In this document: one piece after another, positions 27,815 to 52,381 of the stretch | How positions within the stretch are numbered: position 1 is the stretch's first letter | How the letters are laid out: each line of letters opens with the position of its first letter | NCBI GenBank assembly: GCA_046290225.1 | Contig: JBKAGE010000070.1 | Span: 160,001-224,000, forward strand | Origin: Bradymonadia bacterium | Lineage (GTDB): Bacteria; Myxococcota_A; Bradymonadia; UBA7976; UBA1532 | DNA: 64,000 bases | Reading direction: 5' to 3' | Translations under genes and position numbers: made by a program | Notes under the pieces: generated by a model | The model's database searches: none | Told to the model about the DNA's origin: nothing | What the model saw: only the letters and a program-made list of their open reading frames with translations

Positions 27815-28378
27815 TCAATGTGTCCCAATGCACATGAACGCGCCAGGCGCCGAGCCTTCACACGACTCACCATGACAGCTGTGGTTGCTCTCCTCGCCAG
27901 AGCCACAGAACATCTCACAGCATTCCGCAGTGAGCGTGCGCTGCGTACACCCCAATGGGTTGGGCACACAACGCGGACTGGCCATGCTGCATACGCTGTC
28001 CACGAACTGTATGCAGATCTCGTCGGGGGCACATTCCGGGCACGTCTGGCCACTTCCAGGGGTGAGAGCGACTCCTTCATCCGGAAGGCCTTCATCGGGA
28101 AAGCCATCATCTGGAAGATCATCGTCGGGCACATCCTGATCTGAGGTGCCGCGGTCGGAGGGATCGTCCGGACTGCCTTCATCGGGCACTTCACCTTCCA
28201 TCGAAGGCTGCTCATCCTGGTCGCCGCCCTCTTGATGCCCCTGCAGGCCGAGATCGGCGGTGACCTCAGCTTGCCCCCCATCATCAGCGGCCCCGTCGTT
28301 GTGCTCTTCCACACATGCAATGCAGCCCACGCTCAGCGCGCACACGATGATGGACTTCACGACGCCTTCCCCAATCAT
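27815..28378 (-). CDS. Cys-rich lipoprotein with acidic PDD/PDE tether
   Basis: GGGAGG RBS; VGCIAC lipobox; DLPDD/FPDE repeats; Cys-rich C-terminus. Confidence 0.75.
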   Translation of the reverse strand: MIGEGVVKSIIVCALSVGCIACVEEHNDGAADDGGQAEVTADLGLQGHQEGGDQDEQPSMEGEVPDEGSPDDPSDRGTSDQDVPDDDLPDDGFPDEGLPDEGVALTPGSGQTCPECAPDEICIQFVDSVCSMASPRCVPNPLGCTQRTLTAECCEMFCGSGEESNHSCHGESCEGSAPGAFMCIGTH

Positions 28379-28543
28379 GTGACCTCCCTTTTCAGATGCC
28401 CGCGACCAGACGCCCTCCGACTCAAAGCCTTACACCGTGTGATGGGTGTCTGGCAGCGTATCCGCTGGGCGTGGTCGTACTCTCGCAGAGCACATGGCCA
28501 TCGAGAGCGCCATCACAGACGTTTTCCTGTAGGGTCGACACCC

Positions 28544-30412
28544 ATGAAACCATGGCCTGCTCTAATCGTTACGTGTGCGCTGTGCGCCTGCACTGATGAT
28601 CCCGTGGGGGATGCCCGCCCCGACGATGCTCAGGTCGGTATGCCTGACATCGGCATGGCTCCTGATCCTGACGCAGTTGCTCTACCTTCTCCGGATGCGC
28701 AGCTCATCGACGCGTTTGTCCCTGATTCGACCCCCTTGTCGGACGCGGATGTCATGGACGCCAGCCTCTTTGACGCGGGCATGGAAGATCGACCAGATGC
28801 CGCCCCTGACGCTCAGGTCGATGCGCTGACCCTCACGGTGCCCGACGATGTCACCCTCGACGAGGGTGAGCCCTTCGTGGGTGCCATCGATGCGCGGGCA
28901 CCTGGCACCCTGGAGGTGTTCGTCTTCGATTTGCCCCCTGGTGCGCACTGGCATCCGGGGCGCCGAGAGATCACCTTCACACCGGACTTCATCCAAGGCC
29001 CAGACGCATGGACGATTCGGGTGCTCGCCCGCAGTGAGGGTGAGACGCTGGAGAGCACCTTCACCGTAAACGTACGCGATAACATTCGGCCGCCAGCGCC
29101 GGAGATCATCCGTGAGCAGGAAGGTGACGGCTTTACACGTCTGCAGCTGCGGCAACGCACTGATGGGTTTCTCGATCATCCTGACGAGGCCGGGCGCACC
29201 TTCGACGGGTATGTCATGGCGCCTGATGAGCGAAGCCCCGCTGGCCTCAAGCCAGTGCGCATTCTGCTGCACGGGTTCGCCAGTCAGCCGCCCACTGAGG
29301 GCTGGCGCGGTGAGTACCGCATTGCACCACACGATCCGTTCAACACATATTGGTGGGGGTATCAGGGCTCAGGAGACGCCGGGCCACAGCCCTACACTGT
29401 GCGCCGCGTACTGCACCTGCTCCACTGGGTGCTCGAACGATACCCCGACGCCGATGTCAACAACGTATACATTGAGGGCGCCTCGATGGGCGGTGCTGGC
29501 GCCGCCACCATGGGCCTGTTGTGGGGCCGGCACTTCAACATGGTGCACTCCACCATCGCGCAGTGGGTGCCCCGGAACCACCGACCCTCGCGCCTGGCAC
29601 AGCTGGGTGGGCACTGGGGTGCGCCGGGGCCGAGCTGGGACGTGATGGACCTCACTGATGCCATGGCGTCCCGGGCCGAGGCTCAAAATCAGTATGTGTT
29701 CCTCAAGCATGGCAAGGATGACGGCATCATCCACTTCGGGGCGGTGATCTTCCCCAGCCCGCTCACCGGGTTGAGCGCTTATCAGGCGCTGCAAGCCCAT
29801 CATGTAGGCCATATGGCAGTCTGGGACGAAGGCGGTCATGGCATCCCTGATCCGATTTTGGGTGATCAATGGTGGACCCAAGGCTGGAACCCGGTCTTCG
29901 ACGACACGGCATGGTTGCGACGAGGTGTGGCCTTCCCGGTGTTCTCCAACAGCTCTGGAGATGATGACCCGGGTGACGGCTCGGGGAACGGACGCCGGCC
30001 CTTCGACGAAGACACAGGGTACGCAGGGGGGGTCTTCGCCGCGGACGACACGGGCTGGTCCGGTGATGTGGCAGGGGCGCTCAACCGCGCGCTGCGCTGG
30101 GACTCGAACGGCCTCGTAGACGAAATGGAGCGCTTCGAGATCCCACTGCGGGTGCTCGATGTCCCGAATGGGGATGCGCCCCGAGCAGGCTGGCCAACAC
30201 CTGGTGACGTGCAATCGGGGCCGATCCCGGTGAGGGTGGACGTGACCCTGCGTCGAGTACAGCGATTTCAGGTGATGCCGGGGGCCTCGGTGCGCTGGCG
30301 ATTTGGCGCGCTTGAGGGGGTGACGCACGCTGATGAGTCGGGGGTGATTACGGTGCCTGAAGTGCCGGTATCCTCAGATTGGCAAACACTGATGCTTCAA
30401 CGAGAAGAATGA
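28544..30412 (+). CDS. Lipoprotein with Ig-like domain and alpha/beta-hydrolase domain
   Basis: LCAC lipobox; PDA tether; LPPGA...FTPDFIQ Ig-like segment; GASMGG nucleophile elbow with candidate Asp (GKDDG) and His (EGGH). Confidence 0.75.
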   Translation: MKPWPALIVTCALCACTDDPVGDARPDDAQVGMPDIGMAPDPDAVALPSPDAQLIDAFVPDSTPLSDADVMDASLFDAGMEDRPDAAPDAQVDALTLTVPDDVTLDEGEPFVGAIDARAPGTLEVFVFDLPPGAHWHPGRREITFTPDFIQGPDAWTIRVLARSEGETLESTFTVNVRDNIRPPAPEIIREQEGDGFTRLQLRQRTDGFLDHPDEAGRTFDGYVMAPDERSPAGLKPVRILLHGFASQPPTEGWRGEYRIAPHDPFNTYWWGYQGSGDAGPQPYTVRRVLHLLHWVLERYPDADVNNVYIEGASMGGAGAATMGLLWGRHFNMVHSTIAQWVPRNHRPSRLAQLGGHWGAPGPSWDVMDLTDAMASRAEAQNQYVFLKHGKDDGIIHFGAVIFPSPLTGLSAYQALQAHHVGHMAVWDEGGHGIPDPILGDQWWTQGWNPVFDDTAWLRRGVAFPVFSNSSGDDDPGDGSGNGRRPFDEDTGYAGGVFAADDTGWSGDVAGALNRALRWDSNGLVDEMERFEIPLRVLDVPNGDAPRAGWPTPGDVQSGPIPVRVDVTLRRVQRFQVMPGASVRWRFGALEGVTHADESGVITVPEVPVSSDWQTLMLQREE

Positions 30413-30430
30413 GCCAGTGTCAAAGTTGCC

Positions 30431-33400
30431 TCATCGCACCTGAAGCGACATCCACCCCACCATCAACCCTCGCAGCCCGGCGGCGAGAGCCGAGAGCCCC
30501 CCAGCGACCTCCACACCAGTGCGTAGATCCCACACGGTCGGCGGCTCGTCGCTGATCTCACGTACGACGACAGCCTCGTCATCGGGCTCAGTGTCAGTGG
30601 CTTCCCTCACCAGGAAATCCCATGTGCCCGATTCACCCGTGATGCGGTGTAGACCCATCTCGCCTCTGAGGCACGTGGCCGCAGACACACCCATCACATG
30701 GATCGCCTTCTCGTGCGGATGGGTGATCTCGTGACCTTCACCATGGGCCCACGCCTGAAGACCCTCGATGTATTGCGTGCAGTCAGTCTGCGCTTCGGGA
30801 TGCAACGCGATGACTTCCAATGTGATCTCATCCTGTCGCGGCAGCGCCGCGAGGCAGAGGGACCATTCGAGCGTCATCAATGATGACATCATCTCCTGTG
30901 CACCGCTGACATCGACCTCAGATGCCTCGCCCAGTCGATCCACGACAGCGCTCAAGGCATTCAACTCATCGAGCAGCGGTGAGCCACTCGACCGGAAGCC
31001 GCGGATCAACGCGCTCTCCATCCAACCCTGTAGACGACCACGCACTGCCACGAGATGCCGGCGCCACAGATGCTCATGGGTGAGCACGGGCTCGGTGAGG
31101 CGCAGCGCCTGGCTGCCCACAGCACCGCTGCGATCGCCCACAGCCTTGTCGGTGACCACCTCGACGCGGCCATCGTGCACGTACAATTCGAAGGCGTCGC
31201 CTTGTACGCCCTGACGCAAGGCCAGCCGGCGAGACAATGGGATCAACAGACGCTGCTCGATGGCCCGCTTCATCGGGCGAGCCCCATAGCGGGGGTCGAA
31301 GCCGTGCACCATGAGCAGATCGAGCACAGCATCGTCGTAGGTCACCGTGATCTCACGCCGGGTGAGCCCCTCGCGCTTGAGGGCCTTGTCGAGCATGAGG
31401 CGGGCGATGTGGGCCACTGAGGGGGCGTCGAGGCTGCCGAAGGGTACGAGGTGATCGATGCGGTTGAGGAACTCGGGCCGGAAGAACGCCCGGGCGGCTT
31501 CGAGGTAGCGACCATCATCCCCCCCATCGCCAGTGTTGATGCCGATGGCGCGCTTCTTCGTGGCCCCGAGGTTGCTCGTGAGGATCACGATGGCGTGGCG
31601 CAGCGAGGCGGTACGCCCTGTGCCGTCGGTGATGCGGCCTTCGCCAAGGGCCTGGAGCAGCAAGTCGAAGACCCCTGGCTCAGCTTTCTCCACCTCGTCG
31701 AGCAACAACACGCAGAAGGGCTGCTCTCGCAGCTTTCGGGTCAGCTCCCCTTCCCCGCGGGCACCTCCGACGAGTCGGGCGGCGCTGCCAGGGTAGCCGT
31801 ATTCGCTCATGTCGAAGCGCACGAGCCGATCGCGATCGCCGAACAGATACTCGGCGAGGGTGAGGGCCGACTCGGTCTTCCCCACCCCTGTGGGTCCGGC
31901 GAAGAGGAACGAGCCCAGCGGCTTTTGCGGATCGTTGAGCCCCGCCTTGATGACCGAGACCAGGTGCACCATACGGTCGATGACCAGGGGCTGACCGATG
32001 ATCCGCTCGGTGAAGAAGGCCTTCAGGCTCTCAAGATCGAGCAACGCATCAGGATCGACGAGGCCCTTGGGAAACCCGCTCGACCGGGCAAAGGCCTCGA
32101 CGGCGTCTGTTGGCTGTAGTGTCTCCTGACCCAGGCGGGCCATCTGCTCGATGAGGCTCAGCCCCGATCCAGGCAAGCCGCCGATGTCACCGAAACGGGC
32201 GAGCAAATCGAGCGCCCGGGCCAGGGCGGCCTCGGTGAAGGTGGTTTTGTGGGCCTTGGAGAGCACATCGGCCCGATGAGACAGGATCTTGTATGCCCCG
32301 TCAGCGCTCAACGCAGGCAATGTCTGACGTCGCAGGGCCGCCATGAAGGCAGGGTCGAGCTGCTCCGCGAGCACCAGCGTGTCGGGAGTGCATTCCGCGA
32401 GCACGGTGAGCTCACCGGATCGGATGAAGGGAGTGAGGCAGGCGGCGACGGTCATCCCCCCCTGACTGCCGGCCATCATCAACTCGAGGGGGTTGTCGAC
32501 GTACAGCACGCCCAGACGGGACTGCACCGCCCGGATGACCTGCAGGCAACGCTCCTGCCACTCACCGAGGTATTGCATGCCAGCGACGATGCGGCTGCCG
32601 GTGACGTGCCACACGGGCACCTCGGTGAGGGGCCCAGGTACGTTGAGATCACGGGCGATACGATGACACGCCTCGTGGATCACCGCGGTCTTGCCCGAGC
32701 CTGATGGGCCCACGAGGACCATGCTCCGAGGCCGGCCGCCGCCGAGAGTGCCCAGCAGCTGATCTACAGCGTCGTCCCGCAGTTGGGCGCGGGGCAGTCG
32801 ATCATGGCGGGCCTCTTCGGTGAGATCGATGCCCACCTCTGCCAGGGCCTGCTCGTCACTGCGACCCCAGAAGAAGCCAAAGGGAGAATCATCGCCCTCA
32901 TCGTTGCCTTGCCGCGTGCCCTTCAGTCGGTTCTTGCGAGATCTCTTGCTGCCCCCCCGGAGCACCTTGCCGGAGAAGTTCACGTCGAGGGGCTCGATGC
33001 GCTCGCCCCGCTCGTACTGATAGCTGAGCAGCTCGTCCACGGGATCGAGGTGGAAGAAGTCCCGCACCACCTCCTCGGCCCAGGGCACGATGTTCTCGCG
33101 GCCCACGATGCGGAACTGAATGCCGAGGCGGGGCAACGAGATCTCGAAGGTCTCCGGAGCCCCGGGTGGCAGATCTTCTGGATCGATGGGGCGCTCGAGC
33201 ATGGTCAGCCGCATGGGCACGGTGATGAGGCGGCCCTGCTGCACCGCCCGCAGCTCCACCTCGAGAGCCCGGCGAACCAGCTTGGGGAACGCGAACACAC
33301 CGCGGGCGGCGATACGACCTTCGGCGAGCTCGTGGGAGAGCACCTCGGCGAGCTGGGCCTTCACGGCGTTGAGATCAGGGCCGAAGGCGGCGTACTCCCG

Positions 33401-33472
33401 GTGGGTGAGCACCACGGCGGTGAACCAGTCATTGCGGTGCTGCCGAATGAAGAGCTGAAACTGTTGCTGCAT
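30431..33472 (-). CDS. ClpA/ClpB-like double AAA+ ATPase, paralogue C, with release-factor-like C-terminal domain
   Basis: GPSGSGKT and GPTGVGKT Walker A; LLLDEVEKA; FRPEFLNRID; YGARP. Start MQQQF overlaps the upstream stop (TGATG). Confidence 0.9.
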   Translation of the reverse strand: MQQQFQLFIRQHRNDWFTAVVLTHREYAAFGPDLNAVKAQLAEVLSHELAEGRIAARGVFAFPKLVRRALEVELRAVQQGRLITVPMRLTMLERPIDPEDLPPGAPETFEISLPRLGIQFRIVGRENIVPWAEEVVRDFFHLDPVDELLSYQYERGERIEPLDVNFSGKVLRGGSKRSRKNRLKGTRQGNDEGDDSPFGFFWGRSDEQALAEVGIDLTEEARHDRLPRAQLRDDAVDQLLGTLGGGRPRSMVLVGPSGSGKTAVIHEACHRIARDLNVPGPLTEVPVWHVTGSRIVAGMQYLGEWQERCLQVIRAVQSRLGVLYVDNPLELMMAGSQGGMTVAACLTPFIRSGELTVLAECTPDTLVLAEQLDPAFMAALRRQTLPALSADGAYKILSHRADVLSKAHKTTFTEAALARALDLLARFGDIGGLPGSGLSLIEQMARLGQETLQPTDAVEAFARSSGFPKGLVDPDALLDLESLKAFFTERIIGQPLVIDRMVHLVSVIKAGLNDPQKPLGSFLFAGPTGVGKTESALTLAEYLFGDRDRLVRFDMSEYGYPGSAARLVGGARGEGELTRKLREQPFCVLLLDEVEKAEPGVFDLLLQALGEGRITDGTGRTASLRHAIVILTSNLGATKKRAIGINTGDGGDDGRYLEAARAFFRPEFLNRIDHLVPFGSLDAPSVAHIARLMLDKALKREGLTRREITVTYDDAVLDLLMVHGFDPRYGARPMKRAIEQRLLIPLSRRLALRQGVQGDAFELYVHDGRVEVVTDKAVGDRSGAVGSQALRLTEPVLTHEHLWRRHLVAVRGRLQGWMESALIRGFRSSGSPLLDELNALSAVVDRLGEASEVDVSGAQEMMSSLMTLEWSLCLAALPRQDEITLEVIALHPEAQTDCTQYIEGLQAWAHGEGHEITHPHEKAIHVMGVSAATCLRGEMGLHRITGESGTWDFLVREATDTEPDDEAVVVREISDEPPTVWDLRTGVEVAGGLSALAAGLRGLMVGWMSLQVR

Positions 33473-36400
33473 CACGCCCCCTCCCGGGCCAGGGCCCACA
33501 GCCTGCGCCGCACAATGCTGCTCAACGCGGCGGGCTCGCCCATCGGCTGACCGGTGAGCGGATCGACGGCGTCGGCGGTGTAGCGCCGACAGATGGACAG
33601 CCGCGGTCGCGGGTGCTCGCTCACGTCTTGCCCGGCCCGGCGCGCGTCCCGCCACGTATCCCACGCCGTGTCGAGGGCGTTGAGCTGTGTCGAGGCCTCG
33701 GGCCAGAAACACGCCATGGCATCGCCATCATGGATGGCGACGACCTCGACCCGGGCGAGGAAGATGTGCAGATCAGGCCCTGAGTATTTCAGCTGCACAT
33801 GAAAGCCGAGATCAGTGGCCATCACCTCGGCCATGCCCTTGCCTCGGACCCACAGGGCCGCTCCAGTGACCCCCTTGCGCTGATAGTTGTCGTGGCCACT
33901 CTGGAAGCGCTCACCATCACCTCGACCCCAACCCTTCCCTTCGACCTTGAGGCATCCCTGTACCGAAGTGGCGAGACCGGACCATGCATCTCGCAGCCCC
34001 TCGGCCACCTGCAGAGTCCACGCGGCGGACTGCGGATCTTCCGTGGCGGGGAGCAGCCGTACGAGGTAGCCCCGCTCCGCCTCGTCGGCGACGTCGATCT
34101 GCCACCGCAGCAGGCTGTGAGACAGCTCGAGCGCGTCTAGGGCCTGCAAGGCCCGCTCGAAGAGCAGGCGGTTGCGATCGACGGCCACGGGCATCTCGAT
34201 GTCCGCGGCGATGGGTTTGTTGTGGGTGGGGTTGTCGTTGCGCAACAGACGATTCGACAAGCCCCGATTCTGATCGTCGATGACGTTGACGAAGTCGTAG
34301 CGCGACAACCACGCCTCGGCGAAGTCGTCTACTTGCTGGGTCAGGTCACCGACCTCTCGCAGGCTGAAGCTCAGGCTCTCGAGCTCCGCGAGGGCCTCGA
34401 CGCTCAAGGCGGGCCCTTCCCCAGTCTCGGCGCGGTTGTACTGCTCGAGCAACGCGCCGCGGCGGGTGAGCTGTCGCTGATGCCATTCGTCGGCCCCGAT
34501 GGCGGCGACGAAGCCCACGAGCTGTTGATGACGCAGCTCGAGCTCGGGCCAGCGCTCGATGGTGTAGTCGGGCAACGCCTCTGCCTGGGGCTCGTCGAGG
34601 GCCCAGACTTCCATACCAATGGCCTCACCTTCGCGGTACAGCTCCACGAGGGTGGTGCGGTTCGAGGGCTGGGCCACCAGGTGAGCCGCAAGAGGTACCG
34701 TGAGACGCTGCTCGAGGGCTCGCTTGAGCGAGCGGGCGCCATAGCGAGGGTCGAAGCCCTGATCGATGAGCAGCTCGACGAGGGCGGGCTCCACGGTGAC
34801 CCTCACTCCGCTCCGGCGCAGGCCACGGCGGTTGATGATCTGCAGCAATGTGCGCTGCACCAGCGGGCCCATGTCGTCACGGTTGAGCGTACGAAAGGGC
34901 ACCACCCGGTCGATCCGGTTGAAGAACTCGGGGCGGAAGAAGCCCTCGGCGGCCTTGCGGTAGTGGATCGCCTCCTGAGCGACGCCGTCGCCGGGGGTGC
35001 TGAACCCCAATGGGCTCTGCGCACCTCGAACCCCGAGGTTGGAGGTCATGATCAAGATGGTGTTGCTGAAGTCGGTGGTGCGGCCCGCGGCGTTGGTGAG
35101 CCGGCCCTCGCCAAAGACCTGCAAGAAGGCGTCGAAGACCTGCGGGTGGGCCTTCTCGATCTCGTCGAAGAGCACCACGCTGAAGGGCTGCCGCGCCACC
35201 TGACGGGTGAGCTCGCCTTCGGGCTGCCAGCGATCACCAAACAGCCGCGACATGGCCATGGGGCTCTGGAACTCGCTCATGTCGAAACGCACGAGGCGGT
35301 CGCTGGTGCCGAAGAGGTACTCCGCGAGGGCTTTGGCAGTCTCGGTCTTGCCCACCCCCGTGGGCCCCACGAAGAGCAGGGTGGCCAGTGGGCGCTGAGG
35401 ATCATTGATGCCCTGTTGCATCAACGTGACCACCTCGGTGGCGGTGGTGCTCGCCGCCTGCTGTCCCACGATGCGCTCGCTGAAGTGGGCCTGCACCTCT
35501 CGGGCCTTGGGGGCCCGGCCCGCCCAGAGCACGAAGTCGGGCAGACCGGTCTCTCGAGCGTAGAAGCTCACCAGGGTCTTCTCTCCGAGCACCCGGCGGC
35601 CCCGCTCGTTCCTCGGGGCGAGCTTGCCATGATGGGCGCCGGCGAAGCGGGTCATCAAATCGACGGCCTTACCGGGGTGACACTGATGGGGGGCGAAGCG
35701 GCGGGTGAGGGCCAGCACCCCCTCGAGGACCTCGGGGGTGATGGTGATCGCCTGCTCGGCTTCGAGGTTGCGCACGGTGCCCACGAGCACACCGAGGGTG
35801 TCTCGCTCGTCCATGGGAGGCACCTGGATGATGTGCAACCGGGCGAAGAAGCCCGGGGCCTCCCGGCGGGTGGCCTCAAGGCGAGCGGGGGTGCACTCTC
35901 CGAGCAGCCGGATCTCCCCCTGGGCGAGGTGGGGCTCCAGGAAGCTGGCCACGTGGGTGTCGGACTTCGCCGAGCGCCCGGTGAAGACCAGGGTGGGCAG
36001 ATCATCCACGTACAAGATGTCCTGCCGGGCGGAGAGCTCGTGCACCATGGCCTGCACCCGAGCCTCCCAGGCCCCCACCACGCTCATGCCGGCGATGATG
36101 CGGTTGCCGTCTACAGCCCAGAGATCAGTTCGCTGCTCGATGGGCAGCTCGAGGGCGGCGAGGCGTCGGGCCACCTCGTGCACGATGGCGGTCTTCCCGC
36201 AGCCCCTGGGGCCCACGAGCAACACCCCACGGCCGGGGCGCTCGAGCTGCTCCATCACCTGCTGCACGATGGCGTCGCGGCCGAAGGCGCGGTTCAAACG
36301 GCCGTCTTTTGCCCGGTGGATCAGGTTGGCCCCCACGGTCTTGAGGGTCACCGGAGGCACGAGGCGCCGCTTCTCTTTGGGCTTGAGGGTCTTCTTCTTG

Positions 36401-36972
36401 CCCTTGGGGCCTTTCTTCTTGGGCTTTTTCTTCTTCTTTTTGAGCGGCGTCTCCGGGAGCACCGTGGGCAGCTCTGCCTCCACCTCGAGGATCTCGAGGT
36501 GGCTGGCCCCCTCCACCATGACGCTGTCGAGGTCGTAGAGATCGAGTCGATGGCGGGCGAGCCAGTCCATCAAGTGACGCTCGAGGGCCACCTTGAGGGT
36601 GGCGGTGCTCTCCACGGCGAAGGCGTCGAGGCCACCGCGCAGGTGCGGCACGCGGGCCACGTAGAGCGACTCTTTGGGCCACCGGGTGAGCACCACGTCG
36701 AACCAGCCCACCCACTCTTCGGGGCCATGCACGCGCTTGTCGGGGGTCAGGTGCACCTTCACCCGCCGCAGCTGGATGTCGGGGCACAAGGCATAACGCC
36801 ACATGCGGGCGGCGTCCTCCTGGGGCACCGTCTCCATCAGGTGCAGGGCCACGTCGTCGAGCAGCTCTGCGAGGCTGGTGCCCCGAAACACCCGAGTCGA
36901 GATGCCCGGCAGCCTGATCTCGGCCATCTCACGCTTGTCGATGGTGACCATCACCGGTACGGGCAGAATCAT
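33472..36972 (-). CDS. ClpA/ClpB-like double AAA+ ATPase, paralogue B
   Basis: GPRGCGKT, GPTGVGKT, LFDEIEKAHP, FRPEFFNRID; Lys-rich linker; ATGA overlap with the upstream gene. Confidence 0.9.
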   Translation of the reverse strand: MILPVPVMVTIDKREMAEIRLPGISTRVFRGTSLAELLDDVALHLMETVPQEDAARMWRYALCPDIQLRRVKVHLTPDKRVHGPEEWVGWFDVVLTRWPKESLYVARVPHLRGGLDAFAVESTATLKVALERHLMDWLARHRLDLYDLDSVMVEGASHLEILEVEAELPTVLPETPLKKKKKKPKKKGPKGKKKTLKPKEKRRLVPPVTLKTVGANLIHRAKDGRLNRAFGRDAIVQQVMEQLERPGRGVLLVGPRGCGKTAIVHEVARRLAALELPIEQRTDLWAVDGNRIIAGMSVVGAWEARVQAMVHELSARQDILYVDDLPTLVFTGRSAKSDTHVASFLEPHLAQGEIRLLGECTPARLEATRREAPGFFARLHIIQVPPMDERDTLGVLVGTVRNLEAEQAITITPEVLEGVLALTRRFAPHQCHPGKAVDLMTRFAGAHHGKLAPRNERGRRVLGEKTLVSFYARETGLPDFVLWAGRAPKAREVQAHFSERIVGQQAASTTATEVVTLMQQGINDPQRPLATLLFVGPTGVGKTETAKALAEYLFGTSDRLVRFDMSEFQSPMAMSRLFGDRWQPEGELTRQVARQPFSVVLFDEIEKAHPQVFDAFLQVFGEGRLTNAAGRTTDFSNTILIMTSNLGVRGAQSPLGFSTPGDGVAQEAIHYRKAAEGFFRPEFFNRIDRVVPFRTLNRDDMGPLVQRTLLQIINRRGLRRSGVRVTVEPALVELLIDQGFDPRYGARSLKRALEQRLTVPLAAHLVAQPSNRTTLVELYREGEAIGMEVWALDEPQAEALPDYTIERWPELELRHQQLVGFVAAIGADEWHQRQLTRRGALLEQYNRAETGEGPALSVEALAELESLSFSLREVGDLTQQVDDFAEAWLSRYDFVNVIDDQNRGLSNRLLRNDNPTHNKPIAADIEMPVAVDRNRLLFERALQALDALELSHSLLRWQIDVADEAERGYLVRLLPATEDPQSAAWTLQVAEGLRDAWSGLATSVQGCLKVEGKGWGRGDGERFQSGHDNYQRKGVTGAALWVRGKGMAEVMATDLGFHVQLKYSGPDLHIFLARVEVVAIHDGDAMACFWPEASTQLNALDTAWDTWRDARRAGQDVSEHPRPRLSICRRYTADAVDPLTGQPMGEPAALSSIVRRRLWALAREGA

Positions 36973-39900
36973 GCCTGACCCTCCTCATACTCGATGGTGG
37001 GCGCCTGTCGTTTGAAGAGCGGGTGAGCCCCATGGCCAAAGACCACCTCATAGACGGTGGCTTGCAAGGCCCGGTGCCACAAACGATGCAGCCGAGGCTC
37101 GTAGGCCTGCTGTAGATCGATGGCCACGTCGTCGATGATCCACCGCGCCTCGTTGATCACCCGCCGTCGCGCCGAAGGCCACAAGGTGTCGAGCCGCCGG
37201 TGCTCGATGATGCCCTTTTGATCGGTGTAGAGCACCTGGGCCCCAGCGGGCTTGCCATGATCGCGGATCCAGTCGTGGGCCCCAGTCTCAGCGCTGAGCA
37301 GACACACGTGGGGCCCGGTGATCTTGATGGCGATGGGGCGCCGACCGTCACCGTCGATCATGTGTTTGACCCATTGCTCCATCTGACGGTGCTGTTGCCG
37401 GGTGAGCTCGGCGTCGTCCACAGGGATCGAGGGGCCCTCGAAGCTCTTGGGGTGAGTCCAGATCAGTGGGGCCTTGTCTTTGCTCGCCTCGAGGGCCTCA
37501 GCCTCTTCTCGGGCGCGGATCTGCGCCTCGGTCTCGGCCTCTTCGCCCTGCTCTTCCCTGGCGTGCTCCTCAGCCTTCGCGCGCTTTTTGGCCTTGGCTT
37601 TCTGGCGTCGGGTGAGCTGTGGTGCCTCCTTTGGGGGCGTCCAGTGCGGATCGACGTCGAGCACGTAGCCCTTCAGCGTCCAGCCGAAACGCGCCGCCAG
37701 GCGCAGGTAGATGCCGAGCAGTTTGGCCACCAGCGGCCACTCCCCCTTGGCCCCTTTGAGATACAGCACCCCAGCCTCGGGGCTGTCGAAGCGACGGTCG
37801 TACAGGTCGAGCTCCAGGGCATCGAGCTGCTCAATGGTCTCTCTGAGCTCCGGTGCCAGCAGCGCCACCCCATCAGCGCGCCGATCGTAGAGCTGCTCGT
37901 AGGCGAGCTCTTCGAGGGCCTCAATGCGGCCAGTGAGCGTGTCGAACCCCGCGAGCACCACCCGATCGGGCTCGAGCCCCCTGGTCAAAGCGTTGGCCCG
38001 CTCGGTGTCAGTCCAGAAATGCTTCTCTTGTGAGAGGCGATCCATGAGCCGCAGGTGCCGACGGCGACTCTCGGCGAGGGGGCTCTTGCGCCACCGAAGC
38101 ACCTGATCTCGGATGATGCCGATCTCGCCGACGAGGCCCAACAGCGCCTTGCGCACGCCGGCCTCAGAAGCCGCCTTGCTGCTGTCAGCCCTGCTGAAGG
38201 CCAGGCGCTCGCTGTCTTCTTCGTCGATCTGCACCTGAATGAGCTGATGCTCCACGGCGCCCTGCTCGGAGAGGGTACGGGCCAGAGGCGCAGTGAGCCG
38301 CTGCTCGATGAGACGCTTGAGCGGTCGAGCGCCATAACGGGGCTCCACCCCACGCTCGGCGAGCCACTGCTTCACCGCCTCGGGCACGTCGATGACCACG
38401 CCACGCTGCCGCAGCCCCTCTCGCCGGGCGAGCTTCACCAGCTCTCGCTCGGTGATGCGATCGATGGCCGGCGCCTCAAGGGGGTTGAAGGGCACCACGT
38501 GATCGATGCGGTTGAACAGCTCGGGGCGGAAGAACCGCTCGGCCTCGCTGCGGAAGTGAGCCTCGAAGTTGGCCCGAGTGGCTTCGGCGCCGCCAAAGCC
38601 CAGCCCTCCCTTGAAGGTCTCCACTCCGAGGTTGCTGGTCATGATGACCACGGCGTTGCAGAAGCTCGCCGTACGCCCTGCGGCGTCGGTGAGGCGGGCC
38701 TCGCCGAGCAGCTGCAACAGCACATCGAAGACCGCAGGGTGAGCCTTCTCGATCTCGTCGAGCAACAGCACGCAGAAGGGCTGCTGCCTGATCTCGCTGA
38801 TGAGACGGCCTTCCTCGTCGCCGGCGCCGATGAACCGGTGCACGCTGCTCGGCGCGGCGAACTCGCTCATGTCAAAGCGCACCATGCGATCGTCGCTGCC
38901 GAACAGGCACTCCGCGAGGGCCTTAGCGGTCTCTGTCTTGCCCACACCTGTGGGGCCCACGAAGAGGAACGAGCCCAGAGGCTTGTTCAGATCGGAAAGC
39001 CCCGCCTTCATCACTGCCACGAGATCAGCCATGCGTCGCACAGCACCGCTCTGGCCGATGATGCGCTGCCGGAACAGCCGCAGAATCTCCTCGGTGTCGA
39101 GGGGCAAATCGTCGCGGATCAAGAACTCGGGCATGCCCGTCTCGACGCAGAACCGGGTCACCACCTCGCCACGGCCGAGAGTGACGGAGGGCAGCTCGAT
39201 CTTGCCCTCGGCGTCGGGCACCACCTCTGCAGCCCGGCGGCCGTCGGCCTCGTCCACGAGGCGCCTCAGGAAATGCAGCGCTGTACCCAGGGCGCTGGCG
39301 TCGCCACGGAACCGTGCACAGAGGCCTTCGATGGCCGAGAGCCCCGGGGCGCTCACGGTGATGTCGTAGTCACGGGCCAGCTCTGCGGCCACAGCTTCGA
39401 GGATCCGCCGCGCCGCAGCAGGCTCGGGCTCCTCGAGCTGCCACGGGGAAAACATGCGGGCGAAGCCGGCGTCGCGCAGCTCCAGCTTCGTCCAGGACTG
39501 TGGGGTGCACTCCCCCACGAGGGTGATGCGACCTCCGGCGAGGTGAGGCTTGAGCATCAGGGCCACGTTCTGATCGGAGTGGGCCGACCGCCCGGCATCG
39601 AGCAAAGCCAGCGGATCGCCCACGTACCAGATGACCTCGGCGTCGCTGCACTCTTGCAAGATGTCGAGGCACTGCTGCTGCCAGCCCCCGAACCCTCCTT
39701 CACCGGCAATGAGGCGGCTGGCGTCGACGAACCACACCGGACGCGTGCGGATCTTCGCAGGGGTCTTCTTACGCACGATGCGCTGTACGAGGGCGTTGAG
39801 CACCGCGGTCTTACCCACCCCTGAGGGGCCCACCACCACAACAGAGGTGCCCCCGGCGGCGGTGAGGCGGCGGAACAGGTCTTCCACCTCATCAGTACGG

Positions 39901-40628
39901 CCGTGGGCCTGCTCGAGGTGGCCATCCTTCGCCTGACGGCTCAGGTTCACGCCGATGCGCTTGAAGGTGGGCGTCGGCGGACGCTTCTTCTTGCCCTTCG
40001 GCGCGTCCGGATCTTTGTCCTCGTCTTCTTCGTCTTTGTCTTCATCAGGGGGCGCCGGCGCAGGGAGCATGGCCGCCCCACACAGCTTGCCTGTGAAGGC
40101 CATGGGCGAGGCCACCTCCACCTCGAGCTCGAGCAACTCGAGGCGTTCTTCCCCGAGCCAGCGCAGATCGAGCCGCTCACTTGGGGTCGCGTGGGACAAC
40201 GTGGACTTCATCATGTCTTCCACGGCGGCCTGCAGGACCTCTTCGCCTTCTTTGATCTTCGCCCGGGGCACCCACTGCCGTGTGCCCCACCGGATGGCCC
40301 ACAGCTGGAGATAACGTCGATCCCGAGAGGTGAGCACCGAGACCCGGGTGGTGTGATGCTCCAAGTCGTCCGCACCGTGGATCGGCAGCGCCTCGGGCAG
40401 CTCGACCGGCAACAGCTGCAAATCGGTGGGGGTGACGTAACGCCACAGACGCCCTGGGTGTGTGCGTTCGAGCCGGTCGGTGAGCATGAGCGCCAGCTCT
40501 TCACGGCCGGCGTCGATGTCGGGGGTATAGACACACAGCTCCGGCTCACCGACGACCTGCAGGGTGAAGCAGCCATTGGGGTGCTCGTGAACCAGGAGCT
40601 GGACGCTGAACTGCACAGGACCTCCCAC
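36969..40628 (-). CDS. ClpA/ClpB-like double AAA+ ATPase, paralogue A
   Basis: GPSGVGKT, GPTGVGKT, LLDEIEKAHP, FRPELFNRID, YGARPLKR. An alternative GTG start lies at 40616. Confidence 0.9.
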   Translation of the reverse strand: MGGPVQFSVQLLVHEHPNGCFTLQVVGEPELCVYTPDIDAGREELALMLTDRLERTHPGRLWRYVTPTDLQLLPVELPEALPIHGADDLEHHTTRVSVLTSRDRRYLQLWAIRWGTRQWVPRAKIKEGEEVLQAAVEDMMKSTLSHATPSERLDLRWLGEERLELLELEVEVASPMAFTGKLCGAAMLPAPAPPDEDKDEEDEDKDPDAPKGKKKRPPTPTFKRIGVNLSRQAKDGHLEQAHGRTDEVEDLFRRLTAAGGTSVVVVGPSGVGKTAVLNALVQRIVRKKTPAKIRTRPVWFVDASRLIAGEGGFGGWQQQCLDILQECSDAEVIWYVGDPLALLDAGRSAHSDQNVALMLKPHLAGGRITLVGECTPQSWTKLELRDAGFARMFSPWQLEEPEPAAARRILEAVAAELARDYDITVSAPGLSAIEGLCARFRGDASALGTALHFLRRLVDEADGRRAAEVVPDAEGKIELPSVTLGRGEVVTRFCVETGMPEFLIRDDLPLDTEEILRLFRQRIIGQSGAVRRMADLVAVMKAGLSDLNKPLGSFLFVGPTGVGKTETAKALAECLFGSDDRMVRFDMSEFAAPSSVHRFIGAGDEEGRLISEIRQQPFCVLLLDEIEKAHPAVFDVLLQLLGEARLTDAAGRTASFCNAVVIMTSNLGVETFKGGLGFGGAEATRANFEAHFRSEAERFFRPELFNRIDHVVPFNPLEAPAIDRITERELVKLARREGLRQRGVVIDVPEAVKQWLAERGVEPRYGARPLKRLIEQRLTAPLARTLSEQGAVEHQLIQVQIDEEDSERLAFSRADSSKAASEAGVRKALLGLVGEIGIIRDQVLRWRKSPLAESRRRHLRLMDRLSQEKHFWTDTERANALTRGLEPDRVVLAGFDTLTGRIEALEELAYEQLYDRRADGVALLAPELRETIEQLDALELDLYDRRFDSPEAGVLYLKGAKGEWPLVAKLLGIYLRLAARFGWTLKGYVLDVDPHWTPPKEAPQLTRRQKAKAKKRAKAEEHAREEQGEEAETEAQIRAREEAEALEASKDKAPLIWTHPKSFEGPSIPVDDAELTRQQHRQMEQWVKHMIDGDGRRPIAIKITGPHVCLLSAETGAHDWIRDHGKPAGAQVLYTDQKGIIEHRRLDTLWPSARRRVINEARWIIDDVAIDLQQAYEPRLHRLWHRALQATVYEVVFGHGAHPLFKRQAPTIEYEEGQA

Positions 40629-40766
40629 GTCTCGCGTTGCTGAGGAGTCTTACAAGATCTCCTTGCCAGTGCCTACCCGAACCCGTTACAAGCTCGGGCT
40701 ATCTGATGCGCACACAGGGTGTATTCAGATGGGGCATATATCAGGGCTAAAATGTGAAGGGGTCAC

Positions 40767-41309
40767 ATGCCATTCTCACTTCGTGGTCGCGTCGCGGTGA
40801 TCGACGCCGACATCACCACGCTTGAACTCGACGCCATCGTCAATGCCGCCAACAGCGCACTCCTCGGCGGTGGCGGGGTCGACGGGGCGATCCACCGCAA
40901 GGCGGGCCGTGGTCTGCTCGCCGAGTGTCGTCCGCTCAACGGGTGCCCTCCGGGGCAAGCGCGCATCACAGGTGGGCACAACCTGCCCGTGAAGCACATC
41001 ATTCATGCAGTCGGGCCCATCTGGCGTGGTGGCAACCAGGGTGAATCCACCACCCTGGCCGCCTGCTACACCAACAGCCTCAAGCTCTGCGAGCAGTATG
41101 ACTGCGAGACCGTGGCATTCCCGGGCATCAGCACCGGTGTCTATCGGTTCCCCATGGAGAAGGCCGCCTCCATCGCTGCAGAGACAGTGCTGCAGTGGCT
41201 CGAACACCACGAGCAGCCTCGCCACGTGACCTTCTGTGCATTTGGCTTCAAAGCAAAAAAGATCATGGCCGAAGCCCTCGAGGCTGCCCTCATGGCCCGA
41301 GACATGTAA
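40767..41309 (+). CDS. Macrodomain protein (O-acetyl-ADP-ribose deacetylase, YmdB-like)
   Basis: DIT, DAIVNAANSALLGGGGVDGAIH, IHAVGP and AFPGISTGVYRFP motifs. Confidence 0.94.
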   Translation: MPFSLRGRVAVIDADITTLELDAIVNAANSALLGGGGVDGAIHRKAGRGLLAECRPLNGCPPGQARITGGHNLPVKHIIHAVGPIWRGGNQGESTTLAACYTNSLKLCEQYDCETVAFPGISTGVYRFPMEKAASIAAETVLQWLEHHEQPRHVTFCAFGFKAKKIMAEALEAALMARDM

Positions 41310-48702: not shown

Positions 48703-49644
48703 ATGGCGTCAGACGATCCGATCGATTTCGAAGCCCACATGAAGCGCATCGGGGTCACCCCGCGCCCAGATCGGCAGCGTCGTGATCGTCAGCCGCACGT
48801 CGAGACCTCCCCCACGCCGGCCTCAGCCAACTCACCGTCACCGCCCACAGCAGTAGACCTCCAGAAAGATCGCGACGCGCTGCGTCGAGACAACACCGCT
48901 CTGCGACATCGGGTGAAGGCCCTGGAGGTTCAGCTCGAGGCCGCCAAGCAGGCAGCAGGTGAAGCGCGCGCGCAGCAGCGCATCGCCGAGGCCAAGCTCA
49001 GTCGGCTCGACGCGCCCAAACCCAATGAGAGTACGCTGCGTGATCTGCTCAGGGCCCGCGGGTGCGCCGACGACGACGAGATGATGTTGGTGGTCGAAGG
49101 GCTGCTGGCGTCTCGGCCCGAGGTGCTGTTGGACCAAAGCCTCTCTCGACCCGAGGCATTGCTCACGGCCCTCGACGCCGAGGTGATCTTCACCGCCCGA
49201 GATCTGCCCCCTGGGCCTCGGCCCGCGGTGGTGATCCCTGTGAGCGCGCAGCAACGCTGTGAGCTGGGGCCCGCTTCAGATCTCACCGCAGCCTATGAGG
49301 GCTTCGTCGATCTGTGTCGACGACACGCGCTGAAGCGGGTGGTGATCATCGGGGGCTCGCCGAGCTACCACGCTCAGCTCAAGGCCCTGGAGCGCGTCAT
49401 GGCGGGGGCACCGCGGGTGAGCCTGATCGACGGCACCCGCCGTCACCCGGAGCGCCGGGCCCGGCCGCACCTCAAGGGGGCTGACCTGGTGGTGATTTGG
49501 GGGCAGACGATGCTCGCCCACGCCGTGAGCGAGCAATATCGGGGGGCAGGTCAGCGGGTGACGGTGGTGCGGCCGGGGCTCACGGGCATGCTCTTCGAGC
49601 TCTCGCTCAGTCTCGAGTCACGCTTCAGCGACCAGCAGCGATGA
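48703..49644 (+). CDS. Coiled-coil protein with C-terminal DUF2325-like domain
   Basis: GAGGTGAGG RBS; coiled coil; VVIIGG...ADLVVIW...LAHAVS motif. Confidence 0.7.
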   Translation: MASDDPIDFEAHMKRIGVTPRPDRQRRDRQPHVETSPTPASANSPSPPTAVDLQKDRDALRRDNTALRHRVKALEVQLEAAKQAAGEARAQQRIAEAKLSRLDAPKPNESTLRDLLRARGCADDDEMMLVVEGLLASRPEVLLDQSLSRPEALLTALDAEVIFTARDLPPGPRPAVVIPVSAQQRCELGPASDLTAAYEGFVDLCRRHALKRVVIIGGSPSYHAQLKALERVMAGAPRVSLIDGTRRHPERRARPHLKGADLVVIWGQTMLAHAVSEQYRGAGQRVTVVRPGLTGMLFELSLSLESRFSDQQR

Positions 49645-52108
49645 TCTCGCCTTCGGCGGCGCCGTCGATGCCGGGCACCTCGGGGAGAGAGGGCAGCGCA
49701 GTGTCTTTGCCCAGGGCGGCCTCAAGGACCTGACTCATGTCTTCGGCGAGGATGAACTCCATCTGATCCCGCACGCTCTCGGGCACATCATCGAGATCAC
49801 GCCCATTGCGCACCGGCAAGATCACCCTGCTGATGCCAGCACGGTGGGCGGCGAGCACCTTCGATTTGATGCCACCCACAGGCAACACCCGACCGCGCAG
49901 TGTGACCTCACCGGTCATGGCCGTGTCGGCCCGCACGGTGCGATCAGTGAGCAGAGAGGTCAGCGCCGTGAAGATGGTCACCCCAGCAGAGGGCCCGTCT
50001 TTGGGCACAGCCCCTGCGGGCACGTGCACGTGTAGATCAAAGTCGTCGAGGGCCCCCGCGGGAATGCCCAGGGCGTCAGCGTGGCTGCGCACATAAGTCA
50101 ACGCCGCCCGGGCAGACTCCTTCATGACGTCACCGAGCTGCCCGGTGATCTGCATGCCCCCCTTCCCGGGCATCTTGCTGGTCTCGATGAACAAGATGTC
50201 ACCGCCCACCGGCGTCCAGGCGAGCCCCGTAGCCACACCGGGGATGGCCGTACGCTCGGCCACCTCGGCGGTGAACTTGGGCTTGCCCAGATGCGCGGCG
50301 AGATCGTCCGCACCCAGCGTGATGACGGGCCGCGGCGTCTCGGGGCCCACCTCGGAGCGCGCCACGGTGAGGGCCGCCGCCCGGCAGATCCGAATCAGCT
50401 CTCGCTCGAGCTGACGCACGCCTGCTTCTCGGGTGTAGCCGTCCACGATGGCCGCCAGCGCCTCGTCGGTGATCTCCAGTGCCGGGCCCAGATCAGCCTC
50501 AGGGCCCACACCGTGCGCATCGAGCTGCCGGGGCAGCAGGTGCTTGCGGGCGATCTGTACCTTCTCCTGTTGGGTGTAGCCGGAGATCTCCACGATCTCG
50601 AGGCGGTCTCGCAGAGGCGCGGAGAGTCGACCGAGATCGTTGGCGGTGCAGATGAAGAGCACCTCGCCGAGATCGAAGGGCTGCTCAAGGTAGTGATCGG
50701 TGAACACGCCGTTCTGCTCCGGGTCGAGGACCTCGAGCAGCGCCGACTCAGGTGATCCGCCGCCGAAGCTCACGCCCATCTTGTCGATCTCGTCGAGCAG
50801 CACGATGGGGTTCCGGGCCTCAGCCTTGCGCAGGCCATTGAGAATACGGCCGGGCAACGCACCGACATAGGTGCGCCGATGGCCCCGGATCTCGGCCTCG
50901 TCTCGGACGCCACCGAGGGCGATGCGCACAAAGGGACGCCCTGTGGCCTCTGCCACCGAGCGGGCGAGGCTGGTCTTGCCCACCCCAGGAGGCCCCGCCA
51001 GACACAGAATCGTGCCCCGAGGGTTCCCGGAGAGCTTGAGCACGGCCATGTGCTCCAGGATGCGCTTCTTCACATCGTCGAGGCCGGTGTGATCGGCGTC
51101 GAGACGCTGACCTACACCGTTGAGATCACCATTGAGCTCCGCCCGGGCGTTCCAGGGGAGATCAGCGACGAGCTCAAGCCACGTGCGGATCACGTTGGCC
51201 TCGGCCCCCTGAGTCGAGTCGAGGCGCTTGAGCTCCCGCTCCACGGCCTTCATGACCTCTGCAGGGGGATCAGCCTCTTCGATGCGCGCCCGCAGCCGGT
51301 CGACCTCCGAGCCGTCTTCGTCGCCGCCCTCGCCGAGCTCCTTCTTGATGGCCTTGAGCTGCTGACGGAGGATCGCCTCGCGCTGCTGCCGGTTGAAGGC
51401 TGTGCGCACGCTCTTCTCGATTCGGCTCTTCACATCGCTCGACGCCAGGATCTCTCCAGCGAGGCGAGAGACCCTGTCGAGTCGATCGTTCACGTCGAGG
51501 GTGAGCAGCAACGCCACGGCCTGAGACTGGGTCAGGTCGAGCGCTGCGGCGACGGCGTCGGAGAAGGTGTCCGGGTCGAGCTCCCCCTGGTTGTTCTCGA
51601 TGACCTGGCTCATGGCGTGATCTTCGTCGAATCGCAGAGCCTCGAGCTCACTCCGCAACGCCTCGGCCTTGAGCCTGACCTCGCTGGATCCCGCCGAGGG
51701 GCTCTCGAGGGGCTCGCCGAATGCACGCCAGTAGGGCTCCACCCTCTCGAGCTGGTTGAGGGCGAAGCGCTTGATGCCCACGAGGGTGACCTGAAAGACC
51801 CCCTCGCTCACCTGCAGAATTTTGAGCACGTGAGCGTAGGTGCCCACAGGGTGCAAATCAGCGAGGCCCGGGGCGTTGATGTGCGGGTCGCGCTGAACGG
51901 CCACCCCGATGATGCTCGGGGTGGCCTCGTCCGGATCTCGACGGCGCTGTTCGAGCAACGCCCGGACCAACGCAGCAGATCGTTTTCGGCCGGCAGTGAC
52001 CGTGATCACACGACCGGGAAGCAGGGCGCCGCTGCGCAGGGGCAGAACGGGGAAGGCGGTGTCGCCGTGGGGCAGATGTGCTTTGATTTCCATCGAGTGC
52101 GTCTCCAT
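49625..52108 (-). CDS. lon: ATP-dependent Lon protease (endopeptidase La)
   Basis: LON N-domain (FPVLPLR), GPPGVGKT, RGHRRTYVGALPG, PKDGPSAG catalytic Ser, GGIKSK Lys. The start is at 52108 or 52093, not the 53599 of the ORF track. Confidence 0.96.
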   Translation of the reverse strand: METHSMEIKAHLPHGDTAFPVLPLRSGALLPGRVITVTAGRKRSAALVRALLEQRRRDPDEATPSIIGVAVQRDPHINAPGLADLHPVGTYAHVLKILQVSEGVFQVTLVGIKRFALNQLERVEPYWRAFGEPLESPSAGSSEVRLKAEALRSELEALRFDEDHAMSQVIENNQGELDPDTFSDAVAAALDLTQSQAVALLLTLDVNDRLDRVSRLAGEILASSDVKSRIEKSVRTAFNRQQREAILRQQLKAIKKELGEGGDEDGSEVDRLRARIEEADPPAEVMKAVERELKRLDSTQGAEANVIRTWLELVADLPWNARAELNGDLNGVGQRLDADHTGLDDVKKRILEHMAVLKLSGNPRGTILCLAGPPGVGKTSLARSVAEATGRPFVRIALGGVRDEAEIRGHRRTYVGALPGRILNGLRKAEARNPIVLLDEIDKMGVSFGGGSPESALLEVLDPEQNGVFTDHYLEQPFDLGEVLFICTANDLGRLSAPLRDRLEIVEISGYTQQEKVQIARKHLLPRQLDAHGVGPEADLGPALEITDEALAAIVDGYTREAGVRQLERELIRICRAAALTVARSEVGPETPRPVITLGADDLAAHLGKPKFTAEVAERTAIPGVATGLAWTPVGGDILFIETSKMPGKGGMQITGQLGDVMKESARAALTYVRSHADALGIPAGALDDFDLHVHVPAGAVPKDGPSAGVTIFTALTSLLTDRTVRADTAMTGEVTLRGRVLPVGGIKSKVLAAHRAGISRVILPVRNGRDLDDVPESVRDQMEFILAEDMSQVLEAALGKDTALPSLPEVPGIDGAAEGEIIAAGR

Positions 52109-52381
52109 GTGTGGTGTCTGTGAAGCGAGTAAGTGAAAGCTAAAATCCAAATGAGGGCCGTCAAGAGAGCGGCATCTCTCTTTTTTAAAACCCCCTAAGG
52201 GGGTTGCTTGTTTCAGTTTTTCTTCAGAGCCTGCCCTTCGGGCGGGGCTCCGCTCCTTCGGCTTCGCCTCCGTCGACTCCGCCCCGTTCGGCCACAGGCC
52301 GAACAGGCTCGCGCCCTGAGGGCGCTTTCTGGCATTACTCCCCCGACGTTGCCTGCCGATACAGAGGGCCTGGAGCCACTC

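Follow-up and report, generated by a model that had tools for sequence, protein, structure and literature searches.

We analyzed a 64,000-nucleotide stretch of DNA from a Bradymonadia bacterium (assembly GCA_046290225.1, contig JBKAGE010000070.1, positions 160,001-224,000), referred to below as the window. The subject of this work is an operon of three long minus-strand open reading frames (ORFs), named here A, B and C, which lie exactly at the positions given for them in an earlier note on this sequence. Each encodes a Clp-like ATPase with two AAA+ nucleotide-binding domains (NBD1 and NBD2, or D1 and D2), an additional N-terminal domain and a C-terminal tail. Our analysis indicates that A and C end in tails descended from release factor (RF) RF2 with its catalytic domain removed, and that the three genes have been inherited together. 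The genes and their parts are located as follows (window positions; aa, amino acids).

36969..40628, minus strand: gene A, an ORF of 1219 aa counted from GTG 40628; Clp-like double AAA+ protein with a tail assigned to RF2 descent
40086..40628, minus strand: A N-terminal domain, aa 1-181; HicB-N-like in predicted fold (beta-beta-beta-alpha...beta), with an inserted alpha/beta subdomain at aa ~67-154
39924..40085, minus strand: A charged linker; an acidic run and then a KKKR run in the translation
39129..39923, minus strand: A NBD1 (D1); Walker A GPSGVGKT, degenerate Walker B WYVGD without an acidic pair, no pore-loop Tyr
38232..39074, minus strand: A NBD2 (D2) with D2-small; catalytic motifs intact (Walker B LLLDE), GYVG deleted, ClpA-type loop GLGFGG
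36972..38231, minus strand: A tail, aa 800-1219; assigned to RF2 descent, with RF domains 1 (helical), 2 and 4, no domain 3/GGQ and no SPF loop
33472..36972, minus strand: gene B, 1166 aa, ATG start; A-type architecture with a poly-Lys linker
36469..36972, minus strand: B N-terminal domain, aa 1-168; shares homology with the A and C N-terminal domains
33475..34641, minus strand: B tail, ~389 aa; probable RF-like module, strongly diverged
30431..33472, minus strand: gene C, 1013 aa, ATG start
32966..33472, minus strand: C N-terminal domain, aa 1-169; aligns with the A and B N-terminal domains
30434..31171, minus strand: C tail, ~246 aa; short module assigned to RF2 descent

The earlier note had described three double-AAA+ genes of shared architecture coupled through overlapping codons, and direct reading of the ORFs and junctions agrees with it. 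The stop codon of A overlaps the start of B as ATGA (36969-36972), and the B/C junction is TGATG (33470-33474), in which the ATG of C begins one base into the TGA of B. The sequence AGGAGG or GGGAGG is found upstream of the B start and of the C start. The mechanically called ORF of C extends to 33712, its real start being ATG 33472. Gene A most likely starts at GTG 40616 (1215 aa) rather than at GTG 40628, because GGGAGG is present at 40626-40621, a database copy has 1215 aa and the orthologs begin with MQF or MRF. All three proteins share one layout: an N-terminal domain of ~170-180 aa, a charged linker, NBD1, NBD2 with ClpB_D2-small, and a tail of 250-420 aa. The linker of B (window 36313-36480) contains long poly-Lys/Arg runs that are kept in the family of the window and absent from a second family, f6; this linker might bind nucleic acid.

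The C-terminal domains had been called release-factor-like in the earlier note; for A and C this assignment is firm, whereas for B it is no more than probable. A search of the Protein Data Bank (PDB) with the A tail as a single sequence gave no matches, and a word-indexed search returned only one non-self protein. Among 61 related genomes, the A tail found long orthologs in 10 (including the genome of the window) and also weakly matched the genuine prfB of 7 genomes, the identity of which was checked. A profile built from ten A tails matched 21 RF2 sequences in the PDB (E-values of 1.8e-11 to 7e-6) and no other family. Its resemblance to RF1 is much weaker than that to RF2 (E 0.2 versus 1.8e-11). 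Alignment of the A tails with 12 RF2s by hhalign gave 99.0% with E 4.9e-18 over 191 columns. The C tails reached E 8e-6 as a profile against the PDB, and 95.1% with E 3.3e-8 in hhalign against RF2.

Structural comparison gave the same assignment for the A tail. Its AlphaFold2 (AF2) model, computed from a 22-sequence alignment, has a mean predicted local distance difference test score (pLDDT) of 85.4 and a predicted template modeling score (pTM) of 0.79, and all 26 Foldseek matches of this model at E≤1e-3 are class-I RFs. VIA-align superposed model residues 32-398 on RF2 residues 5-366 with Z 18.2 and a root-mean-square deviation of 6.0, aligning 263 of 362 RF2 residues. In the VIA ranking, 41 RF entries have Z of 13-18, and the next unrelated entry has 8.6. 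Inserted in the tail of A in the window, at model residues ~194-255, is a charged helical hairpin not found in distant orthologs.

The comparison also defines what the tails have lost. A block of ~100 RF2 residues (about 90-100, located after an E-x-G-x-H motif) has no counterpart in them. Between this motif and the C-terminus, A tails have 87-106 residues and C tails 75-76, compared with ~180 in RF2. The GGQ motif of domain 3 is present in none of 22 A tails and none of 3 C tails, nor in A, B or C of the window. The SPF loop is likewise missing from all 20 A tails and all 3 C tails compared, where the loop is shortened, as against its presence in 9 of 11 RF2 rows in which the motif was located. 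In RFs, the hydrolase domain is an insertion into the codon-recognition domain, and domain 1 is a helical, GTPase-interacting domain (PMC6514570). By profile and, for A, by modeled fold, the tails of A and C are RF2-derived, consisting of domain 1 and the domain 2/4 body from which the hydrolase domain 3 with GGQ has been excised. The idea that they represent an ancestral RF form predating the hydrolase insertion was rejected, since they are specifically nearer to RF2 than to RF1.

The tail of B is homologous between lineages (95.7%). A profile of f1-type B tails aligned to RF2 in hhalign with 56.8%, E 1.1e-4 and 164 collinear columns; a mixed B profile gave 18% against RF2, and B against A tails gave 19%. 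The nearest ESM-Atlas clusters of the B tail are PCRF proteins (score 0.86), which we treat as a lead only. It is fairly probable on these profile comparisons that the B tail is a more diverged RF-derived copy. When the genome was searched for PCRF, only RF1, RF2 and one short ORF were recovered. The latter match (contig C61 of the genome, 25259-25384, minus strand) lies in a 201-aa frame and covers model positions 153-194 only; it may be a truncated or PrfH-like RF relative.

The AAA+ core belongs with the Clp proteins. AAA_2 (PF07724) was found in A, B and C with E-values of 1e-38 to 1e-45, and D2-small (PF10431) is above the cut-off in all three. The best NCBIfam equivalog scores are 366 bits for ClpB against a cut-off of 1232, 341 against 993 for ClpA, and 302 against 885 for ClpV. 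The isolated N-termini of A, B and C match no Pfam family at E≤10, Clp_N included, and the NBD1-NBD2 interval is 70-94 residues as compared with 201 in the ClpB of the same genome, so that the absence of both the Clp-N repeat and the middle (M) coiled-coil domain of ClpB, pointed out in the earlier note, is confirmed.

Motif states were compared in 27 family members, namely 10 A, 9 B and 8 C proteins encoded in the window or at one of nine related loci; ClpB, ClpA and a third Clp of the same genome served as references. Walker A is present in both D1 and D2 of all 27 sequences. The catalytic Glu of the D1 Walker B is absent from all 27, and A lacks both acidic residues: at the D1 hhhhDE position the A proteins have G followed by D, G, N, R or S, the B proteins D, E or P followed by D, and the C proteins D or E followed by N, S or H. 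The aromatic residue (Y/F) of the D1 pore loop, canonically K-Y-R, is kept only in C (8 of 8, reading GMQYLGEW in the window; 0 of 10 in A). In D2, Walker A, Walker B, sensor-1, the Arg finger and sensor-2 are intact throughout (27 of 27), and the GYVG pore loop has been removed by a deletion of 5-6 residues, again in 27 of 27, in agreement with an independent HMMER alignment. The D1 module therefore probably binds ATP without being able to hydrolyze it, and the D2 module is catalytically complete as judged from its motifs. Since the canonical pore-loop aromatics are missing, classical substrate threading by a ring of A, B and C, and with it a classical processive unfoldase, is unlikely. The proposal of the earlier note that the proteins form an unfoldase extracting nascent chains is not supported as it was worded.

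A further conserved element is a loop with x-G-[F/L/I] after sensor-1, found in all 27 sequences at the position of the ClpP-docking tripeptide of ClpA; there, the ClpA of this genome reads PGF and its ClpB has a gap. The best PDB sequence match for D2 of C is the ClpB/ClpA chimera 5ofo (232 bits versus 219 for wild-type ClpB), and the AIGI of C is aligned on the SIGL of this chimera, which contains the IGL of ClpA. The presence of the loop in all three paralogs suggests that the D2 face may dock ClpP or another ring partner.

The three N-terminal domains can be aligned to each other. The AF2 model of the A domain has a pLDDT of 91.2 and a pTM of 0.83. A VIA search of 48,161 chains with this model ranked HicB or HicB-like proteins in the top six places (Z 8.4-6.2); in the best match, 82 of the 85 residues of HicB (6g1c) were aligned at Z 8.4, with residues ~67-154 of the A domain as an insertion. 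Foldseek found no match at E≤1e-3 and one local match with probability 1.0 over 48 columns (E 0.07), and the sequence profile of the domain touches 2yzt at E 0.01. Taken as modest but mutually consistent signals, these results suggest a HicB-N-like fold for the N-terminal domains. The alternative that the domain is a relocated RF domain 3 was rejected: RF1 domain 3, PrfH and C12orf65 gave Z of 4.3-5.4, too weak beside the HicB matches.

A complex of the three N-terminal domains was also predicted. The score of B against the other chains was 0.79 (0.78-0.80 in three runs), as compared with 0.01 for the best control; in the calibration of the tool, 116 of 157 solved complexes scored this high, as did 2 of 215 mismatched pairs. 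The runs share at least 93% of contacts, with a partner pLDDT of at least 85. The interface listed is that of A with B, which would use different faces of each domain.

Searching 1.84 billion representative sequences with the A-tail profile in HMMER gave 482 matches at E≤1e-3, 87 at E≤1e-10 and 39 at E≤1e-30; genuine RF2s follow in this search at E 1e-13 to 1e-7. Almost all full-length matches have 1090-1210 aa with the domain at ~770-1100, and hence the tail domain is always fused to the ATPase. The named relatives are metagenome-assembled genomes of Myxococcota/Myxococcales. Among 301 genomes sampled across the phylum, 22 possess the long fusion and 43 others match through RF2 only. The carriers are patchily distributed, with 2 of 14 genomes in the family of the window as against about 16 of 27 in family f6.

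Genomic context was reconstructed for 20 loci, with L084 (a 4.6-kb contig) and three fragmentary carriers set aside. Of these loci, 13 have contiguous A-B-C genes, two have inserted ORFs and one has C inverted; three have A-B with a C ortholog elsewhere in the genome, and one has a lone A-like gene. Arrays are thus present at 16 of 20 loci and all three genes in 19 of 20 genomes, and overlapping stop and start codons recur across loci. The earlier note had named homologs occurring mostly as singletons as a finding that would refute it; the neighborhood survey found a singleton at only 1 of the 20 loci. Deviations from the common layout include a 484-aa ORF between A and B in G015 (L020, 8509-9963, plus strand), two ORFs between B and C in G044 (L023, 7026-9998) and an adjacent but inverted C in G229 (L076, 8666-11041, minus strand). 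In G160 (L080, 14255-18787, minus strand) the frame of the A ortholog has 1511 aa and the match to the A N-terminal domain of the window starts at residue 385; the excess may be an extra N-terminal region or merely an upstream open frame.

In a FastTree phylogeny of the D1-D2 core (59 rows, with the newer loci labeled by their best BLAST match to A, B and C of the window), a single branch sets off each paralog: A with 21 rows and support of 99, B with 19 rows and 100, and C with 16 rows and 99. The separation of all three from ClpA and ClpB has support of 100, and the branching orders inside the three clades run in parallel. A-B-C is an ancient, co-inherited triad of paralogs. The view that the paralogs work together is thereby supported, indirectly, by their presence in 19 of 20 genomes and adjacency in 16 of 20, the recurrent overlaps, the mirrored clades, and the A-B score of 0.79 versus 0.01. 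The genome has its own RF1, RF2, RF3, ClpA and ClpB and one ClpP; since these RFs and Clps are kept, the triad is an accessory system, an addition and not a replacement.

The operon consists of A, B and C only, as it is delimited by a convergent gene beside C and a divergent gene beside A. The former (window 28232-30412, plus strand) is a real, widely conserved gene, alpha/beta-hydrolase/esterase-like, and ends 19 nucleotides from the stop codon of C; it has 157 relatives at E≤1e-5 and a 622-aa database copy, without a Pfam match, and the minus-strand ORFs that overlap it are probably spurious. The latter (window 40767-41309, plus strand) encodes a Macro domain (E 4e-44) and is not found beside the array in other loci. 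No further conserved neighbor was detected among the array loci, the flanking genes being housekeeping-like and variable between genomes. The GC content across the locus is unremarkable and does not delimit an island, and a promoter and terminator scan of 29800-41000 gave no signal above shuffled sequence. Among public sequencing runs, no RNA data set was listed as containing the sequence, and two DNA data sets were listed with small shares (0.16 and 0.09). Elsewhere in the window, a 1324-aa Lon protease is encoded at 49625-53599 on the minus strand; its recognized Lon domains start at about residue 517, leaving an N-terminal extension of ~500 aa.

Several known systems resemble parts of the triad. 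With class I Clp/Hsp100 proteins (ClpA, ClpB, ClpC) it shares two AAA+ modules, a D2 composed of AAA_2 and D2-small, and all D2 catalytic motifs, and with ClpA and ClpC also the x-G-F/L loop after sensor-1 and the lack of an M domain of ClpB length. It differs from them in having neither Clp_N, the D1 Walker-B Glu nor GYVG, in scoring far below the equivalog cut-offs, and in carrying a HicB-like N-terminal domain and an RF-derived tail; moreover, it comprises three obligatorily co-occurring paralogs, whereas a Clp protein is the product of one gene and forms a homohexamer. The likeness to RF2 (PrfB) lies in fold and detectable sequence profile, both for domain 1 and for the domain 2/4 body, in the A and C tails, which differ from RF2 in lacking domain 3/GGQ and SPF, in falling below the PCRF/RF-1 thresholds and in being fused to the C-terminus of an AAA+ protein. 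The possible similarity to the N-terminal domain of the HicB antitoxin concerns the core fold; the domains described here contain a ~90-residue insertion, have no Pfam match and are followed by AAA+ modules in place of the DNA-binding C-terminal half; no HicA gene was found near the operon.

Conceptually, the closest parallels are from archaea and eukaryotes. Dom34/Pelota pairs with ABCE1. Dom34 is described as inactive as an RF and Vms1 as linked to Cdc48 (PMC6514570). In both the Dom34/Pelota-ABCE1 and Vms1-Cdc48 cases, a dead RF-shaped probe of the A site is combined with an ATP-driven machine on stalled ribosomes. Dom34 and Vms1 differ in being free-standing proteins of the archaeo-eukaryotic RF fold, which is unrelated; in the triad, an RF body of bacterial type is covalently joined to what is predicted to be a Clp-type ring.

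These observations can be combined into a model, to which we assign a probability of about 0.45: that A, B and C form a hetero-oligomeric machine with a dead D1, an active D2 and tails that act as docking arms at a component of translation. A hetero-oligomer as such is likely, given an ancient co-occurring set of genes, mirrored clades and the predicted binding of the A and B N-terminal domains. In the model, the three proteins would assemble into one ring, held together by the dead D1 tier and by mutually binding N-terminal domains, and the D2 tier would supply ATP-driven movement. The RF-derived tails would hang from the D2 face as non-catalytic docking arms, most simply for the A-site and factor-binding region of the ribosome that an RF normally occupies. 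Such a ring would hardly work as a classical processive unfoldase. Through the conserved ClpA-type loop, its D2 face may also dock ClpP or another ring partner. The machine may therefore serve to anchor a peptidase at translation complexes or to gate it there; alternatively, it may remodel a bound factor or drive it off.

A more specific version, which we consider rather unlikely, is a bacterial counterpart, made of other components, of the archaeal and eukaryotic rescue machines that combine a dead RF with an ATPase. Here, a hetero-hexameric ring would use GGQ-less RF2 bodies to test the A site when ribosomes are stalled or idle; ATP hydrolysis by D2, without threading, would then either split the complex, clear it or recruit ClpP. 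In its boldest form, this ring would act on RNA (mRNA or tRNA) and not on protein; the loss of aromatic pore loops, replaced by charged ones, and the HicB-type N-terminal domains, which resemble double-stranded RNA-binding domains, are the reasons for considering it.

A number of results weigh against the model of a translation-directed hetero-oligomer. The tails of A, B and C have no Pfam match at E≤10, including PCRF (PF03462) and RF-1. The B-tail profile had no match in the PDB, so that this tail is not significantly RF-like by sequence, and the f6-type B profile gave 0.3% against RF2 in hhalign. Only 3 of 19 C orthologs have the C tail, the other 16 being without any tail. The SPF loop with which RF2 reads the codon, a flanking loop and the part that reaches the peptidyl-transferase center are gone from the tails; docking on the ribosome is therefore not to be assumed from homology, since both the codon-reading elements and the GGQ domain are lost, and an RF-derived tail could be a reused scaffold. 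As to the N-terminal domains, the HicB-like Z of 8.4 is close to the background of the tool for best matches. The score of 0.79 was obtained with our own alignments and three chains, unlike the calibration of the tool; the C domain lies outside the listed interface of the predicted complex, which is uninformative either way, and a predicted contact between paralogous chains may reflect a homotypic mode of binding rather than A-B specificity. Finally, it would be unusual for a ring lacking pore-loop aromatics to carry a ClpP-docking loop, and the loop could be an inherited remnant.

Some of these points are what would be expected if the tail were a recycled structural scaffold, used for example in oligomerization or substrate binding, on proteins that act as specialized chaperones or disaggregases with no ribosome link and possibly as separate rings. 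Loss of all functional RF motifs, PCRF scores below the Pfam threshold and the prevalence of tailless C orthologs all fit this explanation, as does an AAA+ core closest to ClpB, ClpC and ClpA. We nevertheless consider it unlikely. The whole RF body (domains 1, 2 and 4) has been kept, with high model confidence and with core residues conserved across distant families; 19 of 20 genomes have the complete set of genes, which also co-diverge; the pore loops required for disaggregation are missing; and the genome already has ClpB and ClpA. The same missing pore loops (GYVG deleted in 27 of 27 and a D1 aromatic only in C), together with a D1 that is probably unable to hydrolyze ATP, speak against a ClpP-coupled protease, in which the ring would feed already unfolded chains from stalled ribosomes into ClpP, a form of the extraction idea of the earlier note. 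The lack of a ClpP gene linked to the array at any of the 20 loci also counts against it. That reading is quite unlikely, although the ClpA-type docking loop in 27 of 27 sequences, aligned on the IGL of the ClpB/ClpA chimera, and the one ClpP of the genome are in its favor, and RF-like tails could select the ribosomes.

The conflict or defense role that the earlier note had also raised found little support. It can be phrased as an anti-phage system with the AAA+ ring as the switch, in which the dead RF senses a phage factor directed against termination or the A site, or diverts it as a decoy, and an effector or partner is bound by the HicB-like domain. The patchy distribution within the phylum (22 of 301 genomes, with 2 of 14 in the family of the window and about 16 of 27 in f6) and a HicB-N fold typical of toxin-antitoxin systems would be consistent with it, and in PADLOC part of D2 matched DolB and PDC-M37B (E 1e-20 to 1e-31). 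However, these matches are restricted to the generic AAA_2 core, the six neighboring ORFs tested with PADLOC match no defense family, and A, B and C contain no nuclease, toxin or other effector domain. Since, in addition, the flanking genes are housekeeping-like and variable, no GC island is present and the three clades show a mirrored, vertical-looking divergence, we regard an anti-phage system as improbable.

Full-text literature searches, judged from listings and abstracts, found no paper on a Clp-RF fusion, nor any AAA+ ring covalently linked to an RF body. The text of PMC6514570 contains no occurrence of Clp, ClpB or Hsp100 and uses AAA+ only with Cdc48; its supplementary lists may hold such architectures (PMC6514570). 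One ESM-Atlas cluster is automatically named 'ClpB_D2-small / PCRF', which means that databases already hold related fusions. The triad is a real, conserved, three-paralog Clp-derived system with dead RF2 tails that has apparently not been studied, and features beyond those recorded in the earlier note are the HicB-like N-terminal domains, the loss of the D1 Glu next to a catalytically intact D2, the GYVG deletion with a D1 pore aromatic left only in C, and the ClpA-type loop.

Ribosome rescue and quality control in bacteria involve tmRNA, ArfA/ArfB, RqcH and HflX-type factors. The sequence features described here suggest an undescribed machine aimed at the translation apparatus. If its tails dock on ribosomes, the triad would constitute a new class of translation-linked ATPase and an independent reinvention of the Dom34/Vms1 logic of combining an inactive RF with an ATPase. 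For the AAA+ family, it offers a natural set of three Clp paralogs with a dead D1, no canonical pore loops and a ClpP-type loop, and hence a test case for rings that do not thread their substrates. For the RFs, it shows that the body responsible for codon recognition can be retained even when the hydrolase domain has been cleanly cut out.

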